Source of the DNA: a virus
Lineage: Duplodnaviria; Heunggongvirae; Uroviricota; Caudoviricetes
IMG/VR virus record: IMGVR_UViG_2602041579_000011
Location: 1-11,880 of that record
Direction: 5' to 3' (one strand)
Length of the DNA stretch: 11,880 nt
Shown here: one piece after another, positions 1 through 6,720 of the stretch
Layout of the letters: each line of letters begins with the position of its first letter
Position numbering within the stretch: position 1 is the stretch's first letter
The notes under the pieces: model-generated
What the model saw: the letters and a program-made list of their open reading frames with translations, nothing else
What the model was told of the DNA's origin: nothing
Database searches by the model: none
Position numbers and translations under genes: made by a program

Positions 1-280
1 TCAACACATCCTGCGCCTCTAAAATTACGGGGCGCTTTTCCGGCGACTGCTCATCCCCTTCACATAACCCGGCAGCAACATCCAGGAAGACCTGTCTGAT
101 GCTCCTTCTGGCTGCTGCCTCATAAAACTCCAGCGCGGCACCTTCAACACGGTCCAGCGAGATGTCCAGGTCAAAAATTTCACCGTCAAAGCGTTTTTTG
201 TCCCGTAACGCTAAAGTTACCGTAACTTTATTCTCAAAATTGCGGATCCCTTTCACAATCAGTTCATAGTTTTGAGTCAT
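1..280 (-). CDS. DUF1327-family phage protein (YdfR-like); 3' end runs off the window
   Basis: ATG at 280-278 (minus) with a GGAGAG SD about 8 nt upstream, starting 4 nt after the holin stop. Translation MTQNYELIVKGIRNFENKVTVTLALRDKKRFDGEIFDLDISLDRVEGAALEFYEAAARRSIRQ... resembles the YdfR-type protein that lies between holin and endolysin in Qin-like prophages (from memory). Confidence 0.6.
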   Translation of the reverse strand, partial: MTQNYELIVKGIRNFENKVTVTLALRDKKRFDGEIFDLDISLDRVEGAALEFYEAAARRSIRQVFLDVAAGLCEGDEQSPEKRPVILEAQDVL

Positions 281-284
281 TGAA

Positions 285-500
285 TTACTCTCCCCGTGCA
301 GCCTTACGCTTGTCTTCTCTGATTTTGAAGTACAGATTTGTCAGATAAGTCAGGAAGCCCAGAACCAGACTCCCAAGTACACCAATCGCAGCCCACTGTG
401 ACGGACTGACCTGATCAAGCCACTGTAAAAACCAGTAGCCAGCACTGCCTGCGGAGGTGCCGTAGGCAATGCCCGTTGAAATTTTGTCCATGGATTTCAT
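285..500 (-). CDS. Class II holin / pinholin, phage 21 S-like (71 aa), with dual-start motif
   Basis: ORF-track protein [71 protein letters not shown] matches my recollection of S21 (EssD/EssQ-type): two TM segments, charged C-terminus, Met1-Lys2-Ser3-Met4 dual start. GGAGGTGAGG SD precedes the ATG. Confidence 0.85.
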
Positions 501-560
501 AGCCTCACCTCCGCAAATAACGGATGGCGTAGTTTTACACTGAGAAATGAAAGGGATTTG

Positions 561-584
561 AAAAGAAAAACCCGCAAAAGCGGG
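561..584 (-). terminator. Intrinsic terminator between tRNA cluster and holin (minus strand)
   Basis: CCCGC-AAAA-GCGGG hairpin at 571-584; on the minus strand it is followed by TTTTTCTTTT (plus 561-570). Confidence 0.5.
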
Positions 585-660
585 CGAAACGATATATACA
601 GAAAGGAAAGCACTCTATCCAACAAACCACCCACAGTTAATCGGAATAAAAGCAGAGTGC

Positions 661-733
661 TTATGAATGATCGCCTGCTCGAAGGTTAGTATTTCTGCAC
701 AGCAATTTTGCAAAAAAAGGCGATCATTCATAA
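661..733. repeat. 15-bp perfect inverted repeat (TTATGAATGATCGCC / GGCGATCATTCATAA) with 43-nt spacer
   Basis: Arms at 661-675 and 719-733 are exact reverse complements; no ORF; lies downstream (minus sense) of the tRNA cluster. Confidence 0.8.
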
Positions 734-740
734 CTTAAAC

Positions 741-786
741 GTCTTTCAGTCACTCCGGGATTTCCCATCATCGCAGACTGAAAGAC
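741..786. repeat. 11-bp perfect inverted repeat (GTCTTTCAGTC / GACTGAAAGAC) next to the 3' end of the first tRNA
   Basis: Arms at 741-751 and 776-786 are exact reverse complements with a 24-nt loop; candidate tRNA 3' processing or termination hairpin. Confidence 0.7.
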
Positions 787-791
787 TCTAA

Positions 792-867
<76 letters not shown>

Positions 868-870
868 ATA

Positions 871-946
<76 letters not shown>

Positions 947-948
947 AC

Positions 949-1025
949 TGGACCGCCACCGGGGACTCGAACCTCGCACACTCAACTTAAAGGGTTGACG
1001 CTCTTTCCTGATGAGCTAGTGGCGG
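949..1025 (-). tRNA. tRNA-like gene of uncertain identity (possible Lys-UUU-like, with atypical C at position 33); may be a pseudo-tRNA
   Basis: Reverse complement CCGCCACTAGCTCATCAGGAAAGAGCGTCAACCCTTTAAGTTGAGTGTGCGAGGTTCGAGTCCCCGGTGGCGGTCCA: perfect 7-bp acceptor stem (CCGCCAC/GTGGCGG), T-loop GGTTCGAGTCC, encoded CCA. But the anticodon loop is CCTTTAA, the 5' base is C, the discriminator is U and the T-stem has one mismatch. Confidence 0.45.
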
Positions 1026-1026
1026 C

Positions 1027-1102
1027 TGGTGGCCCTTGCTGGATTTGAACCAGCGACCTGGCGATTATGAGTCGCTCGCTCTCACCACTGAGCTAAAGGG
1101 CC
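1027..1102 (-). tRNA. tRNA with CAU anticodon, ileX-like (tRNA-Ile2, lysidine-type, AUA-decoding) rather than elongator Met
   Basis: Reverse complement GGCCCTTTAGCTCAGTGGTGAGAGCGAGCGACTCATAATCGCCAGGTCGCTGGTTCAAATCCAGCAAGGGCCACCA: anticodon loop CTCATAA; overall sequence very close to my recollection of E. coli ileX and unlike metT/metZ. Confidence 0.75.
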
Positions 1103-1206
1103 GGGCGCAGCATAATAACGTTACGAAATCAATGTTGCAAGCATTCAAAAATCACCCTTATCTCCTCCACTAGCGCATTCACCATGTCTATCCGAGATAA
1201 GTGGTA

Positions 1207-1230
1207 CAAAAAACCCGCTTGTGGGCGGGT
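1207..1230 (-). terminator. Intrinsic terminator just downstream of the Q-like gene (tR'-like); hairpin is also terminator-like on plus
   Basis: ACCCGC-TTGTGG-GCGGGT hairpin at 1213-1230; on the minus strand followed by TTTTTTGT (plus 1206-1212); on plus followed by TTTTGTTTG. Confidence 0.5.
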
Positions 1231-1296
1231 TTTGTTTGCTTTTGCCATCACGTACAAAATCGGCAAAATATCAGATTTGCATGAAATATATGCCTT

Positions 1297-1986
1297 TCAA
1301 TCTACTTTTGCAACACTTTGCTTTGAAAATGCCGCCTTTTGTTTTGAACGTGTTCTCATTACAAACAATAAAGCCTCACTATCAAGTCGGTGAAAAATGT
1401 GTTTCATTGCAACCCAGTGACGAGTAAATGTTTTGGACCAGTTTTTAGTTGTCACTCCCGCCAGTAATGCCAGCTCCTGGTATTCATAACCTTCCCCACC
1501 AAAAAGTTCTGCTTTTACTGCCTGCGCCGCCAGCCAGATTAATTTTTTCAGGCGTTCCTGCGTTTTCCCTGCAATTTTTCTGGTACCGGATTGAGTATTA
1601 AATTCATTCCACGCCCACTGTGTTATCGCGATCTGATATTCCCAACAAATACTCCCGCTGTAACACCACAACAACCAGGCTTTATGATGTTCTTCAAGAG
1701 ACAGAACAGCCCGCCGCCACGATGATGTCGAAAACTCAACCGGACTGACCAGAGGTATTGACGTCCCCTTCGCCAGCGATTGCTTTCCCGGGATTGGTGG
1801 ATTATCCCGCGTTATCATTTTTCCAGTCACTTCATCGCGGTACCGGATTTTTTTTCGCCTGTAACGCCCTGTATCGAACATGGCATTCTCTTGCCAGGCT
1901 TCAAGCTGACCTTTTGTTGCCCCACTCAAATCAGCGGTGGCGATAATGAGCTGCTCACGCACAAACTGTAAATACTGGTTATTCAT
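1297..1986 (-). CDS. Putative late-gene antiterminator Q-like protein (about 229 aa)
   Basis: Sits between rusA and the tRNA/lysis cassette, the canonical Q position. ATG at 1986-1984 overlaps the rusA stop (ATGA); the ORF-track start at 1992 is a GTG. Family call rests on synteny and a vague recollection of a 230-aa Q family; not verified. Confidence 0.5.
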   Translation of the reverse strand: MNNQYLQFVREQLIIATADLSGATKGQLEAWQENAMFDTGRYRRKKIRYRDEVTGKMITRDNPPIPGKQSLAKGTSIPLVSPVEFSTSSWRRAVLSLEEHHKAWLLWCYSGSICWEYQIAITQWAWNEFNTQSGTRKIAGKTQERLKKLIWLAAQAVKAELFGGEGYEYQELALLAGVTTKNWSKTFTRHWVAMKHIFHRLDSEALLFVMRTRSKQKAAFSKQSVAKVD

Positions 1987-2342
1987 GCGCACTCCAGTTC
2001 TGTGATTTTTATCCCCAGCATCCCACCAGGAACGAGCTGACCGCGCACAATATTGATTTCATCAAACTGCTCGTCGTCTATGAGTAGTCCGGCATGCGTC
2101 AGCGCATCCAGTGGTGCTTTCAGGATATTGTCCAGGTCACGACGGCGCTTATCCGGTGGCTCTGCAATAATCTTTATCGCCAGCCGTCCGGACAGGTTTA
2201 ATTTCAGTCGCTGCTGGCGAACAATAAGCGCCACATCCCGGCGATAACGCTCACCGGTTTTTGATACAAAATATGTGCTGCCACGACGTCGCCAGTAGGT
2301 GTTCACCGTCGGCGGGTAAGGCAAAACAAACTCTATACGCAT
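1983..2342 (-). CDS. rusA: RusA-family Holliday junction resolvase
   Basis: 119-aa protein MRIEFVLPYPPTVNTYW...PDKRRRDLDNILKAPLDALTHAGLLIDDEQ... shares the PD(K/R)RRRDLDN and DALT.AG..DD.Q catalytic motifs with E. coli RusA. AGAGG SD 6 nt upstream of ATG at 2342. Confidence 0.85.
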   Translation of the reverse strand: MRIEFVLPYPPTVNTYWRRRGSTYFVSKTGERYRRDVALIVRQQRLKLNLSGRLAIKIIAEPPDKRRRDLDNILKAPLDALTHAGLLIDDEQFDEINIVRGQLVPGGMLGIKITELECA

Positions 2343-2354
2343 CAGTAACCTCTT

Positions 2355-3332
2355 TTACCCGAGCACGCCGGTTGCAAAGGCGTGATCAAGAAAACGAAAA
2401 ATTAAATCAACCTGGGAACCATGCTTTTCTTCGAACGCCAGCGGATCCGCATGAAGCTCGTTGTGATGCTCCCGACACAGCGGTAGTGTGAAAATATCGT
2501 GGGATTTTGTTCCCATTCCCCCCTGACCATAACCAATCAGGTGATGGGGATCGTCGGCTGGTTGACCACAACACGCACACGGCTGTGTCTTTACCCAGCG
2601 CGTGTATTTCTCGTTAACCCAGCGGCGACGTTTAGGTCGCTTCATGAAAGATTCAGGAGACTCCGGATCAACGGCAATGCTGACCACCGTCTTTTCCTGT
2701 GGTGGGTTCTGTTGCTGGTGGGCGTGAGGCGGTAGCACAATATTTTTTGTGCGCTGCTTCAGTATGCTGGTGGCTGTCTGTTCTCCCGGTATGATGTCGC
2801 TTTCGCGGTACACAGAGCGAATTTTTTCCGTACGTAATCCCAACGAACGACGTAATACTGCCTCCGGTAGCGCGTCCGCCACCTGATTGCAGACCGCCCA
2901 CCAGGATAACTCAGCCAGCGATAATTCCCGTTCCTGCGAGCCATTCATTGCATGGCGTATGACGTCAATCATCCATGCTGCCAGGTTTTGGTGAGCAAGT
3001 TGCCCGAGTGATTCGGAGGTCTGGTCGCGCAGCTGGTTATCGCAGTGCCAGCACAACACCATCGCGCCAGCGCCATAACGGTGAATGACGGTTTCACTGT
3101 GGTGATAATCGCCGTGTGGCCACTGGCAGGATTTAACATGACGCAGGAGCCAGTCAGACAGTGCACCTGCGCCACCAGCAGCACGAATCACCCGCTCATC
3201 GCTGAAAAATGGCAGTAATGATTTATCCTCCGCCAGCGGCTGGCGAACGGCAGGGACGACTCCGGACGGCAGACCGCGCATGCTTTTCGGTTCAGGCTCC
3301 ACCAGCACTCGAGGGTTATGAAATACTTGCAT
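2355..3332 (-). CDS. DUF968-family phage protein (YdfU-like), C-terminal Cys/His HNH-like motif
   Basis: Translation from ATG 3332: MQVFHNPRVLVEPEPKSMRGLPSG...CACCGQPADDPHHLIGYGQGGMGTKSHDIFTLPLCREHHNELH... closely resembles my recollection of Qin YdfU. The ORF-track start at 3404 is a GTG giving an odd 24-aa extension, so ATG 3332 is preferred. Confidence 0.7.
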   Translation of the reverse strand: MQVFHNPRVLVEPEPKSMRGLPSGVVPAVRQPLAEDKSLLPFFSDERVIRAAGGAGALSDWLLRHVKSCQWPHGDYHHSETVIHRYGAGAMVLCWHCDNQLRDQTSESLGQLAHQNLAAWMIDVIRHAMNGSQERELSLAELSWWAVCNQVADALPEAVLRRSLGLRTEKIRSVYRESDIIPGEQTATSILKQRTKNIVLPPHAHQQQNPPQEKTVVSIAVDPESPESFMKRPKRRRWVNEKYTRWVKTQPCACCGQPADDPHHLIGYGQGGMGTKSHDIFTLPLCREHHNELHADPLAFEEKHGSQVDLIFRFLDHAFATGVLG

Positions 3333-3405
3333 GGATTCACGGCCCGGCCTAAGGACCACCAGCCCAAGTTCCGGTACCAGAACAGGTCGAAGTAATACCC
3401 GCACG

Positions 3406-3795
3406 TTACCTCCAGATCCGTTGCTGGAATGTGCGGGACGGACGCGGTGGGCGTTCGGAGTAAGGGAGCCTGACGTAGATTATCCAGTGACGGTAGTCGA
3501 GGCTAAGGGCTTTCTTAAACTCATACCCACGTCTGCGGTAGTTCTGAATTAGCCACGCTGCCTGCTCTTCAGTGCATGGAGGGTGTTGGTACCAGTCGGT
3601 TTTAAATATGTGTGAACGCCGCCCGTGCCGGATGGCAAGGCCAGTATCTGAAGAGTGAAATTTGATATTGTGCACCGTCAGTTTTCTCTGCTGGCGCAGC
3701 AGGTGCCAGTTGTTCAGGCTGACGAGCGAATTGTAAACCAGAATACGTGGAAAAAACAAAACCAGTTTGAACGCTGAGAGATCCCCATAAATCAA
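3406..3795 (-). CDS. Hypothetical protein; start uncertain (possible GTG start at 3675 giving 89 aa) or remnant of a frameshifted gene
   Basis: C-terminal about 89 aa (…HIFKTDWYQHPPCTEEQAAWLIQNYRRRGYEFKKALSLDYRHWIIYVRLPYSERPP…) looks protein-like; the N-terminal 40 aa of the ORF-track frame do not. An overlapping frame (3602..3916) is also open. Occupies the position of rem in Qin; no family recognised. Confidence 0.3.
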   Translation of the reverse strand: MIYGDLSAFKLVLFFPRILVYNSLVSLNNWHLLRQQRKLTVHNIKFHSSDTGLAIRHGRRSHIFKTDWYQHPPCTEEQAAWLIQNYRRRGYEFKKALSLDYRHWIIYVRLPYSERPPRPSRTFQQRIWR

Positions 3796-4093
3796 CGCGA
3801 GTAAACCAACGCCATATTCTGATAGTTTCTGGCAAAGTAATTAAGGACGTGCACAGCAACGTTCGTCTTGACATTGGCGCGGCTGTCGTAAGCCATTCTC
3901 TACTAACATCATACATATCCTGATGTTAAACCTAAAATGCAATCCCTTATCTTCAACTGCAAGCCACAGAACTATCATGCTCAGCGTCGCCAGTAGGCGA
4001 CCTACCAGCACTGGCCCTGAGTTACATACTAAATATAATCAGGAAAATATTGCGACAGAGGAATTCATTACCAGGGCAGGTATCCAGTAAAGC

Positions 4094-4151
4094 ATTATGT
4101 CGGCATTAGTGAAGCGATACGTTAGCATCGCTTCACTAATGCCGACATAAT
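4094..4151. repeat. 58-bp perfect hairpin palindrome (25-bp arms, 8-nt loop)
   Basis: ATTATGTCGGCATTAGTGAAGCGAT (4094-4118) and ATCGCTTCACTAATGCCGACATAAT (4127-4151) are exact reverse complements around loop ACGTTAGC; no flanking U-tract on either strand. Confidence 0.9.
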
Positions 4152-4316
4152 TAGCGAGTAGGCATAGAGGTGATCTCATTAATTTTCTTGAATAAATCAT
4201 TAGGCCACAAAACTCTATGCCTCTCTTACTTGCCCTCCTGGTACCGGAAACTACTTAGAATCAGTGCAGGTTATTTGAATAATTAACATGGGCTTATATA
4301 TGAAAAAAATAAAAAT

Positions 4317-5183
4317 TTAGGGGTATGATTGCAGAACTGTAATACCTTCTTTCAACTGTTCAAAATTCTTAAACTTTCTGAGCCTTTCTCTACATAGATC
4401 TCTGGACTTACCATTATCATCTTTATGAATGAATATAATATTCACATCATAACTTAACTTTCCATACATTGGGCCAGGGCAGGCAAGAAAATTATCATGT
4501 CGATATCTGTTACCAACAAACCAATACCCCTCATATCCCAACATGGATAAGAAGTCTACAACATCATCTGTAACTTTCTTATTAACAGCCTCACAGAATA
4601 TTGCTGGCTTGTTATTTTTAATTGTATTCACAGCACCACGCATACAATTGATTTCATATCCTTCAACATCTATTTTGATGAAATCAATTTTTATCCCTAC
4701 AGACTCCATAAATGCATCTATGGTAATAATGGCTGGGCTGGGCTGGGCTGGGCTGGGCTGGGCATCATAGCACCCTTCATTATTATAACCATTTTCTATA
4801 GAAAATGAACCGTAATTCCAGGGTTTATCGTATGAAGATACAGGAATTATAATATCCCCGCAAATATCACCAACAGCTTTGTTATATGGCATAACATTCA
4901 ATACGTTATTTATAGCCAGATTTCCACACAACATATTAAATATTGGTGGCTGAGGTTCAAAACATATTACCTTTCCATTTCTACATATTTTTGATAATGG
5001 TATTGTATGCAAGCCTATATTTGCACCAATCTCTAAAACATTGCTGCCTTCTGATAATAATGTTTTGTATAAGTCGACCTCAACTTCACACCATTCGCCA
5101 TAATTTGAGGCATAGTTAGAGATCATATCGCCCCGGAGTAAAATAAAACTTCCCCATCTTAACTCTTTAATATACGTTCTCAT
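4317..5183 (-). CDS. FkbM-family (Methyltransf_21) SAM-dependent methyltransferase, AT-rich cargo gene
   Basis: 288-aa protein with SAM-binding motif VLEIGANIG, VICFEPQP, and the FkbM signature IDFIKIDVEGYE followed by KPAIFCE. AAGGA SD 7 nt upstream of ATG 5183. Visibly more AT-rich than neighbouring genes (by eye, not computed). Confidence 0.8.
   Translation of the reverse strand: MRTYIKELRWGSFILLRGDMISNYASNYGEWCEVEVDLYKTLLSEGSNVLEIGANIGLHTIPLSKICRNGKVICFEPQPPIFNMLCGNLAINNVLNVMPYNKAVGDICGDIIIPVSSYDKPWNYGSFSIENGYNNEGCYDAQPSPAQPSPAIITIDAFMESVGIKIDFIKIDVEGYEINCMRGAVNTIKNNKPAIFCEAVNKKVTDDVVDFLSMLGYEGYWFVGNRYRHDNFLACPGPMYGKLSYDVNIIFIHKDDNGKSRDLCRERLRKFKNFEQLKEGITVLQSYP
4731..4763. repeat. Pentanucleotide tandem repeat (GGCTG)x6.6 inside the methyltransferase ORF
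   Basis: ggctgggctgggctgggctgggctgggctgggc read directly; on the coding strand (CAGCC)n encodes AQPSPAQPSPA between the SAM-binding motif and the DVEGYE motif. Confidence 0.95.
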
Positions 5184-5590
5184 TCGCTAATCCTTATCTA
5201 TATTAAAATTACTTATATAACGTCTTACTGAAGTGGGTTAAGTGCGGGTGCGTTGAGGATGCCTGACACATCAGAGGTGGCGAGGGATTTCTCCCTCGCC
5301 TGGTCTCTTACTCCTCAGGTTCGTAAGCTGTGAAGACAGCGACCTGGCGATTAACATCGCCTTTTGCTGCTTCATAGCCTGCTTCTCCTTGACCTTTCGG
5401 TCCGTAAGAGGCTAATCTCTATGTGTCGCATAGATATGGCCTCAGATTAATGTTAAGCGTCTTGCAGGACGCGTAATGTTAACTGGGGCTTTTCTCTATC
5501 TGCCTTTTGGTGTTCATGCCTGAGGCAGATAGCCTCAAGCACCCGCAGCAATTCTACTTAACTCTCGCTTTACCGCAAACCGTTTTTACC

Positions 5591-5612
5591 CGATATGGGA
5601 ATTCCCATATCG
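5591..5612. repeat. 22-bp perfect palindrome centred on GAATTC
   Basis: CGATATGGGAATTCCCATATCG is its own reverse complement; starts 9 nt past the stop of the 34-aa mini-ORF; no U-tract follows on either strand. Confidence 0.9.
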
Positions 5613-5620
5613 TAATGAAT

Positions 5621-5725
5621 TCAGTTCCCTAGTCGATCCATCAAAAACACAACCAGGCAGTAAACGCCCACAACAGCAACAACAGCCAGCGCACCTTCCA
5701 TTGCCAGTGATATATCATCCGACAT
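5621..5725 (-). CDS. Small hydrophobic peptide (34 aa, one predicted TM helix)
   Basis: ATG at 5725-5723 preceded by AAGGAGGG SD at 5 nt spacing; translation MSDDISLAMEGALAVVAVVGVYCLVVFLMDRLGN. Below the ORF-track length cutoff. Confidence 0.45.
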   Translation of the reverse strand: MSDDISLAMEGALAVVAVVGVYCLVVFLMDRLGN

Positions 5726-5760
5726 ATTCCCTCCTTTGGTGTTAATCCCGGCGAACGTTT

Positions 5761-5844
5761 TTACCCCCACCGACAAATAACATATACTAAAAAAGCGATA
5801 GCCATAGCAACGCCTGTAATTGCAAATGCTTCAGGCCAGTTCAT
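5761..5844 (-). CDS. Small hydrophobic peptide (27 aa), translationally coupled to the DUF551 gene
   Basis: ATG at 5844-5842 overlaps the DUF551 stop (ATGA); GCAGGAGGTG SD sits inside the end of the upstream gene; translation MNWPEAFAITGVAMAIAFLVYVICRWG. Confidence 0.4.
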   Translation of the reverse strand: MNWPEAFAITGVAMAIAFLVYVICRWG

Positions 5845-6710
5845 TGGCGCACCTCCTGCGGCGGTTCTGGTAGAGGCATCCAGTGTGATGGTATCCACGA
5901 CGCACCAGGTATTATCCACCCATCATTAGCGTCAGGATGCCCCGGGATGTAAGTCGCCCATTTCATTCGCCAGTCACCTTTCCTGCCAAAATCCCTGGCA
6001 ACAAGAACGGCTGTTTTGGTATCCGGCATTCGCTCACTACAGCTTATCCAACTATCCGGAGTTACCGGATAGTTGCCCGATAGTGCATTCTGCTCCAGTG
6101 ATGCTTTTACAAACCACGCTGCCTGAACTATAACGCCATGAATCCAGCGCAAATCAGCATCGCGATCTTTCTTTTTCATCTTTTCGCCACTTAAGGCCTT
6201 GCTTATGTGGCTGCGTACCAGGTCTTCATGTAATTCCTTCGCCTCCTCAATGGTGAAACCACCAGGCAGAAGAGCCGGAGTTACCGGAGAGCTGGTTGAC
6301 GCTTCCGGGATTTTCCGAAAATTATTGGTTGACGAATCTTTATTTTCCCGAAAGTTTCCGGACTGAAGCATGGCTTCGCGGCAATCGTTCCAGCCTGTAG
6401 CGTATGCAGCCGCTTTGCTGCTGCCTTCAACTGGCGCATCCTGCCAATACATTTCTTCCGGCACTATCGGCGCTGGAGGGGCGGCAAATAGATATCCGCC
6501 AAAGTCAGGAAGCTCTCTAATGGCCTGTACGAATTTTTGTTTGCCTACGTCAACCCCTAATGGGTAATGAGCTATAATCTTTGCCACCGGCTCTGCTTCC
6601 AGCGATGCCAGCGCAATCCGTGCCAGTTCCATTTGTTCACCACGGGTAAGCCCGTTTTCAAGCGGATTTTTAATGAACAATTCAATACGTTCTTTGGTAA
6701 TAGTGGTCAT
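5841..6710 (-). CDS. DUF551-domain phage protein (289 aa)
   Basis: C-terminus WISCSERMPDTKTAVLVARDF...SHWMPLPEPP matches the DUF551 hallmark (W-x-S-x-x-ERLP ... HWMPLPEPP) as I recall it. AAGGAGT SD upstream of ATG 6710. N-terminal about 200 aa not recognised. Confidence 0.7.
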   Translation of the reverse strand: MTTITKERIELFIKNPLENGLTRGEQMELARIALASLEAEPVAKIIAHYPLGVDVGKQKFVQAIRELPDFGGYLFAAPPAPIVPEEMYWQDAPVEGSSKAAAYATGWNDCREAMLQSGNFRENKDSSTNNFRKIPEASTSSPVTPALLPGGFTIEEAKELHEDLVRSHISKALSGEKMKKKDRDADLRWIHGVIVQAAWFVKASLEQNALSGNYPVTPDSWISCSERMPDTKTAVLVARDFGRKGDWRMKWATYIPGHPDANDGWIIPGASWIPSHWMPLPEPPQEVRQ

Positions 6711-6720
6711 GTGTTACTCC

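Follow-up and report, generated by a model that had tools for sequence, protein, structure and literature searches.

Can a short tandem repeat inside a prophage gene act as a translational ON/OFF switch in Escherichia coli? The question is raised by an 11,880 nt stretch of DNA (the window; positions 1 to 11,880 of IMG/VR record IMGVR_UViG_2602041579_000011), which comes from a lambdoid prophage and covers its early-right and nin region. The nin region contains an open reading frame (ORF) for an FkbM-family S-adenosylmethionine (SAM)-dependent methyltransferase, and inside this ORF lies a perfect tract of pentanucleotides. A preliminary description of the window had put the tract forward as a candidate slipped-strand phase-variation switch. 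In our assessment, the best explanation, and a likely one, is a slipped-strand tract that toggles translation of the methyltransferase in the manner of a contingency locus. At the population-genetic level, the comparison of sequenced alleles supports the phase-variation interpretation.

Repeat tract and reading frame

The methyltransferase ORF is located at positions 4317–5183 on the minus strand. It starts with ATG, is in frame and encodes 288 aa; the assignment is based on PF05050, TIGR01444 and the AlphaFold2 (AF2) fold. A Shine–Dalgarno-like AAGGA, read from the sequence, is found 7 nt 5' of the ATG (5191–5195, minus strand).

The tract occupies positions 4731–4763 and is read on the minus strand, which is the coding strand. 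Tandem Repeats Finder reported a period of 5, 6.6 copies, 100% matches and no indels, with GGCTG as the plus-strand consensus. On the coding strand, the tract reads GCC(CAGCC)x6 (33 nt; unit CAGCC) and is translated into AQPSPAQPSPA, residues 141–151 of the methyltransferase. It is a perfect intragenic tandem repeat with a unit that is not divisible by three, as seen from the raw sequence, Tandem Repeats Finder, shuffles and the length ladder in relatives. None of 200 dinucleotide-preserving shuffles of the window matched the tract when 3 mismatches were allowed (0/200), and the perfect 6.6-unit tract is well past chance level. Its G+C content is 82%, compared with ~35% for the surrounding gene. 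The perfect (CAGCC)x6.6 array of the preliminary description was thus recovered from the raw sequence and by Tandem Repeats Finder.

The encoded AQPSPAQPSPA had been placed within the catalytic domain, between the SAM motif and a DVEGYE motif. The order is correct, with EIGANIG (residues 51–57) before and KIDVEGYE (residues 170–177) after the repeat. The tract falls inside the Pfam envelope, but in a coil of low predicted local distance difference test (pLDDT) score outside the core catalytic elements. In the AF2 model, residues 132–150 form a coil with the lowest confidence in the chain (pLDDT 66–79), the repeat peptide 141–151 included. This location is compatible with tolerance of variable length, and the repeat plausibly sits in a predicted surface loop able to accept a variable (QPSPA)n insert.

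The repeat is free of stop codons in all three frames, and each frame yields the same cyclic peptide. Truncation therefore falls downstream of the tract. In the window allele, the addition of one unit results in a product of 156 aa and the loss of one unit in a product of 164 aa, while a change of three units in either direction restores the full length.

In the proposed mechanism, the tract would gain or lose 5-nt units through slipped-strand mispairing during replication or repair. Each single-unit step would shift the reading frame of the methyltransferase, because five is not a multiple of three. The full-length enzyme, carrying a (QPSPA)n surface loop that varies in length, would be made in one length class out of three; in the remaining two, a stop 3–15 codons past the tract would limit the product to the N-terminal half. 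Length changes would be frequent and reversible within a clone. Loops of 5 nt would be expected to escape MutS-dependent repair in E. coli.

The slippage rate may also rise with tract length. For a tetranucleotide tract in Haemophilus, such a rise is attributed to De Bolle et al. (2000) where that work is cited in PMC11868660. The G-quadruplex potential of the (GGGCT)n strand could add to the instability. This strand is the plus strand, the template of the methyltransferase, and it fits the G-quadruplex consensus. When G-quadruplexes were included in ViennaRNA, a quadruplex (about −20 kcal/mol) was preferred over a hairpin (about −4 kcal/mol), both energies being rough.

Tract lengths in relatives

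The same gene was found in complete E. coli genomes and also in two IMG/VR viral contigs. The alleles fall on two backbones. On backbone A, the coding-strand tract measured 17 nt in tcmA_3, 33 nt in the window, 52 nt in E9, 62 nt in E41, 87 nt in VTB97432v and 137 nt in IMGVR_UViG_2529292907_000015. On backbone B (84–85% nucleotide identity to A), it measured 20 nt in IMGVR_UViG_2778261572_000001 and 170 nt in TUM9812. The eight loci, window included, thus had eight tract lengths of 17–170 nt, all perfect and with differences in multiples of 5.

Apart from a single mismatch in E9, the six A-type alleles were identical outside the tract, over 430 nt of upstream and 415 nt of downstream coding sequence. 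As the tract varies on near-identical backbones, it must change far faster than point substitution occurs. Polymorphism in whole units among near-identical alleles is what characterises a contingency locus. The preliminary description had named invariant copy number across isolates as evidence against a switch; instead, copy number varied widely while the surrounding coding sequence was identical.

Annotation of the relatives in RefSeq reflects the reading frame. There was one intact gene (E9, 298 aa). Two separate 'FkbM family methyltransferase' fragments were annotated in each of E41, VTB97432v and tcmA_3, and broken fragments in TUM9812. The split genes of these four strains showed no lesion outside the tract, and the OFF alleles are therefore still recoverable. 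In-frame alleles and otherwise intact out-of-frame alleles coexist, which is a further mark of contingency loci.

Length differences of this kind might be errors of sequencing or assembly, arising where repeats are not resolved. Short-read assemblies do break at the tract, and the tracts of 137–170 nt, each from a single assembly, could be mis-sized. Against this, tracts of 15–62 nt, which are easily resolved, still differ in multiples of 5, match the predicted ladder exactly and come from several submitters. An assembly artefact is excluded for the short tracts, and as a general explanation we regard it as hardly credible.

The ladder was also followed at the protein level in a collection of 15 billion proteins. 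Four E. coli allele lineages were present, with 72–88% protein identity and the repeat at the same codon position. The sequence around the repeat is EGCYDA(QPSPA)nQQCIDIITID in lineage A, EGDYDASPA(QPSPA)nQQCIDLITID in lineage B, EGDYGASPA...QQCIELITID in lineage C and EGVYDSPAQPSPAQPLDIIAID in lineage D. Full-length forms had 286, 288, 289, 291, 298 or 306 aa. N-terminal fragments had 148–176 aa and ended in AVY, AMH or NALI, just past the repeat.

We then generated alleles in silico by varying the number of units alone on backbones A and B and compared the products with the database proteins. Residue-for-residue matches were obtained for tracts of 17, 22, 32, 47, 52 and 62 nt on backbone A (full-length at 22 and 52 nt only) and for tracts of 15, 30, 50, 55 and 80 nt on backbone B (full-length at 15 and 30 nt only). 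A full-length product appeared at every third step of the in-silico ladder. DNA and protein evidence combined gave at least about 20 distinct tract lengths, from 15 to 170 nt.

About 33 of the listed proteins (clusters P0006, P0007 and P0013) were partial records that break within ~16 residues of the tract. Such breaks are expected of short-read assemblies failing on long or heterogeneous repeats, which indirectly suggests that long tracts are common.

The repeat was confined to the close relatives. Homologues with ≤48% identity (from metagenomes, a Burkholderiales metagenome-assembled genome (MAG) and others) had no repeat and carried an unrelated loop of 6–8 residues of varying sequence and length ahead of a conserved xVxVxxLD strand. 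From a scan of one genome per species, the only homologues obtained were distant and repeat-free, at 42% in a MAG of Burkholderiales and 33% in one of Chlorobiaceae. At the tract site, homologues that lack the repeat are contiguous, a point that the preliminary description had asked to be checked, and QPSPA is not a fixed conserved linker.

Two observations on the repeat and its surroundings stand apart from the ladder. An ATG in an alternative frame (A ATG AAG GGT GCT ATG ATG CCC...) follows AAGGG at approximately 4764–4790 (minus strand), just upstream of the tract. In one OFF class (loci L001 and L003), it opens an ORF that runs through the tract into the C-terminal half and is annotated as 'MKGAMMPSPAQ...'. 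The idea that OFF alleles favour this frame was rejected, since 5 of 6 did so on backbone A and no more than 2 of 7 on backbone B.

At n ≥5, (GGCTG)n tracts also occurred in 27 other IMG/VR contigs (loci L010–L038), unrelated to the methyltransferase gene. Several were read as (QPSPA)n or (GWAGL)n in long open frames, for instance in L014 (374 aa), L025 (351 aa), L032 (319 aa), L035 (569 aa) and L038 (363 aa), and may be additional repeats that toggle the frame of phage genes.

Enzyme class, window allele and the case for neutrality

FkbM-family membership follows from the curated cut-offs of two models. The 288-aa ORF matched PF05050 (FkbM domain) with E=2.7e-15 and 57.4 bits (cut-off 22.7), and TIGR01444 with E=5.3e-27 and 95 bits (cut-off 37.7). 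EIGANIG and FEPQ were conserved in the alignment of homologues, with E35, G53, G57, E76, N92, K170, D172 and E174 invariant. The AF2 model of the window protein (pLDDT 93.4, predicted template modelling score 0.92) showed a class I methyltransferase fold, and Foldseek matched it to CbiT, the FkbM structure 2py6 and TYW2 with probability 1.0. The AF2 models (pLDDT 93–95) have a class I Rossmann fold, in which the SAM motif is glycine-rich and strand 2 is followed by an acidic residue.

A SAM-dependent methyltransferase with an intragenic simple sequence repeat (SSR) could also be a DNA methyltransferase that rewires expression epigenetically when it is switched, as in phasevarions with SSR-bearing Mod or HsdM. 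Phages often carry DNA methyltransferases, and a separate annotated one lies further downstream in relatives. However, only FkbM models scored above their thresholds, and no DNA-methylase family was matched. The QPP at residues 78–80 is unconserved (QR in most homologues), so that there is no (D/N/S)PP(Y/F) motif. Nor is there a target-recognition domain or a res/hsd partner; the flanking genes are hokD and phage nin genes, and the PADLOC match was insignificant. The gene therefore has neither the family, nor the motif, nor the restriction–modification partners of a phasevarion DNA methyltransferase, and we consider this explanation extremely improbable.

With regard to the substrate, a sequence search against solved structures returned only the SAM-binding region of TYW2 and of FkbM 2py6 (E ~1e-4), and the best solved structure, 2py6, had only 19% identity. 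With no close characterised member, a substrate cannot be transferred. The PHROGs label was 'methyltransferase' only, and PADLOC gave no significant match. Several homologues at 42–48% identity had precomputed matches to PF05575, the family of Vibrio cholerae RfbT. By analogy with characterised FkbM/RfbT-type enzymes, and from these matches in homologues, a surface glycan may be the target.

Switching would be selected if, as proposed, the enzyme methylates a cell-surface or phage-relevant molecule. The fuller proposal is that a lambdoid moron encodes a phase-variable FkbM methyltransferase whose target, methylated stochastically, is a surface glycan of the host (O-antigen, core or capsule) or another phage-relevant molecule. 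We offer this tentatively, as possible and still rather doubtful. If it is true, a lysogen population would always be a mixture of modified and unmodified cells, a form of bet-hedging that the phage supplies against host immunity or superinfecting phages. Activity might then also be tuned by in-frame tract length, as in NeuO (see the following section). Only one other SSR-driven switch of surface modification would be known in E. coli, and the locus would be the first with a pentanucleotide repeat or a methyltransferase.

The window allele itself carries a lesion beside the tract. By alignment with five relatives, an in-frame deletion of 15 nt was located with its junction at 4729–4732 (minus strand); the missing coding-strand sequence, CAGCAGTGTATTGAT, encodes QQCID. 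In the coding direction, the deletion immediately follows the 3' end of the tract, and it is specific to the window allele; QQCID was intact in every relative compared. The exact window protein was not found in the 15-billion-protein collection. In the model of an intact allele (P0001), residues 146–153 (AQQCIDII) form an eight-residue beta-strand paired with strand 109–115. In the window model, a strand remnant of 151–153 is left and the partner strand is no longer assigned. Hence, the window allele is ON by frame, yet the deletion may impair the enzyme structurally. The deletion may have arisen as a by-product of an unstable repeat at its border.

The proximity of the repeat to this strand also bears on a role at the protein level, in which the length of the (QPSPA)n loop would tune activity or specificity and frameshifts would be incidental. 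In-frame alleles with 1 to 5 QPSPA units exist (286–306 aa), the loop is modelled as an insertion between core strands directly before a beta-strand, and the catalytic efficiency of NeuO increases with the number of repeats (PMC3046976). However, the majority of observed alleles are out of frame, and a pentanucleotide is a poor means of varying a linker, being in frame only at every third step. As a replacement for the switch, such tuning is very unlikely. It is compatible with a switch and not opposed to it.

The serious rival is a neutral one: a hypervariable variable-number tandem repeat (VNTR) in a decaying, dispensable moron, with the ON/OFF pattern as a by-product of unselected slippage. 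Several observations favour it and weigh against a selected switch. About 30% of the distinct tract lengths are in frame, near the one third that random drift would give, so that there is no sign of selection for ON in the sequenced isolates. The gene is rare, being present in only 5 of 5,426 complete E. coli genomes (0.1%). The phage collection, searched in distant mode, matched at the hok flank only, the plasmid collection gave no match to the locus and a scan of the JGI metagenomes with the window-derived pattern GGCTGGGCTGGGCATCATAGCACCCTTC gave none either.

No convincing minus-strand promoter was found upstream of the methyltransferase in the promoter/terminator scan. The Foldseek search of the PDB returned generic class I methyltransferases (TM-score ~0.45) with no hint of a specific function or substrate. 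The neighbourhoods of five homologues (~40–48% identity) were heterogeneous and gave no consistent picture: one homologue adjoins a Wzy_C protein and a GT4 glycosyltransferase, and the remaining four are in unrelated contexts. Finally, the 15-nt deletion of the window copy and the broken neighbouring hokD both fit a decaying prophage.

Neutral decay is at odds with two features of the alleles. The tract is perfect and at the same site while the gene has diverged to 72–88% identity in four lineages, and the OFF alleles lack the secondary stops or frameshifts outside the tract that are expected if they were permanently off. A permanently inactive gene would gather lesions, and an unselected tract would gather interruptions. 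For this reason, a perfect tract that four lineages have kept at one site speaks against a transient accident. On balance, we judge the neutral explanation to be unlikely and prefer the slipped-strand switch.

Prophage context and known systems

The methyltransferase and ~500 nt downstream of it form an island of low G+C content in the composition profile (3800–5250; 0.34–0.43 compared with ~0.5 in the flanks), which looks like a moron-like insert in the nin region. The downstream part (3800–4316, past the stop codon) contains no convincing ORF and is unannotated in relatives.

Directly upstream of the methyltransferase is a hok/sok toxin–antitoxin locus (5308–5544, minus strand), assigned by Rfam (sok, RF01794, 108 bits) and by alignment with E41. 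The sok RNA is at 5373–5544. Compared with L001 (7149–7304), hokD (5308–5375, minus strand) has an internal deletion of 88 nt, by which the transmembrane part is lost and the frame shifted. The region, sok RNA included, is otherwise identical to strain E41. The hok/sok locus is context and lies outside the switch itself.

Downstream of the methyltransferase follow a DUF968/HNH-type protein, RusA, the antiterminator Q and four tRNA genes. The tRNA cluster (Gly-tcc, Thr-tgt, Lys-ttt and Met-cat; 793–1102, minus strand) lies downstream of the Q antiterminator ORF. Related prophages carry other tRNA sets at this site (Gly+Thr, Lys+Ile or Arg). Elsewhere, the window contains a LexA-family repressor ORF (10148–10921, plus strand) and a replication-O-like ORF with iteron-like repeats (8376–9452, minus strand). 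The repeats at 8977–9059 are in tandem, with period 6/12 (TCTTTATCTGTA x2.9) and period 10/11 (GTCGTGACAC x4.9), and are probably the origin iterons of the lambdoid replicon.

A cassette of hokD, methyltransferase, DUF968 and RusA was annotated in the prophages of four other E. coli strains, and the replication and Q modules around it differed. The shared cassette with differing neighbours means that it moves among mosaic lambdoid prophages. In E. coli E9, a pseudogene remnant annotated as 'dTDP-6-deoxy-L-hexose 3-O-methyltransferase' (L004, 7938–8060) lies in the nin region upstream of hokD, which hints that sugar-methyltransferase morons recur at this lambdoid position.

The locus appears to be previously undescribed. 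Within an incomplete coverage of the literature, we found no description of it, a result that is accordingly provisional, and no work linking CAGCC repeats (or rotations of them) to phase variation. No literature on phase-variable FkbM enzymes was found either, and the remark in the preliminary description that such enzymes modify surface glycans in Campylobacter, Haemophilus and Neisseria was not confirmed.

A second prophage enzyme gene with a ladder of 3–34 units would mean that E. coli receives ready-made contingency loci from temperate phages. As its host is genetically easy to work with, the locus would also be a tractable model for 5-nt repair evasion and long-tract expansion. There are practical consequences as well. 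Short-read assemblies break at the tract, and annotation pipelines split the gene into two 'FkbM family methyltransferase' fragments, so that the locus is mis-annotated in a systematic way and fragment counts are inflated. In the pig and poultry strains with this gene, the tract could also be used as a rapidly evolving marker for typing.

Phase switching in E. coli is usually described as relying mostly on invertible elements or promoters and on epigenetic switches that depend on Dam; the main exception driven by a repeat is NeuO. The tetra- and pentanucleotide loci of Haemophilus and Neisseria (lic1A, lgtC and mod, among others) resemble the proposed methyltransferase switch in their intragenic non-triplet repeats and slipped-strand ON/OFF translation. 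In contrast to this single, rare, phage-borne locus of E. coli, they are chromosomal, with many loci per genome, and belong to host-restricted mucosal pathogens. The O-methyltransferases of the FkbM/RfbT(WbeT) type share the Pfam/NCBIfam FkbM models, the conserved motifs and the fold. Serotype switching by V. cholerae RfbT arises from ordinary mutations and is not known to involve a dedicated repeat tract.

The closest comparison is NeuO, the polysialic-acid O-acetyltransferase of the E. coli K1 prophage CUS-3, which has a heptanucleotide VNTR of 2–93 copies and is ON at multiples of three (PMC3046976). Its VNTR lies just past the start codon, and the repeats are translated into heptads that raise catalytic efficiency (PMC3046976). 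Both systems are prophage-encoded accessory modification enzymes of E. coli with a perfect intragenic repeat whose unit is not a multiple of 3. In both, the full-length product is made only at every third copy number, and the in-frame repeats form a tolerated peptide repeat. The natural copy range is wide in both (2–93 for NeuO compared with ~3–34 units at the methyltransferase locus).

The two enzymes are otherwise distinct. NeuO is a left-handed beta-helix acetyltransferase (LbetaH) with an N-terminus of poly-psi heptads, whereas the window protein matched only methyltransferase families and has a Rossmann-like FkbM fold. The unit is 7 nt in NeuO and 5 nt here; the NeuO repeat begins 2 nt after the start codon, and the methyltransferase repeat encodes an internal loop in the middle of the gene. 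CUS-3 is P22-like, while the methyltransferase belongs to the nin region of lambdoid prophages. Substrate, phenotype and switching of NeuO are experimentally established, and those of the methyltransferase locus are putative. Judged by its alleles, the methyltransferase locus would thus work like NeuO, as a prophage accessory enzyme with a coding VNTR that is ON at every third copy, without being a member of the NeuO family.

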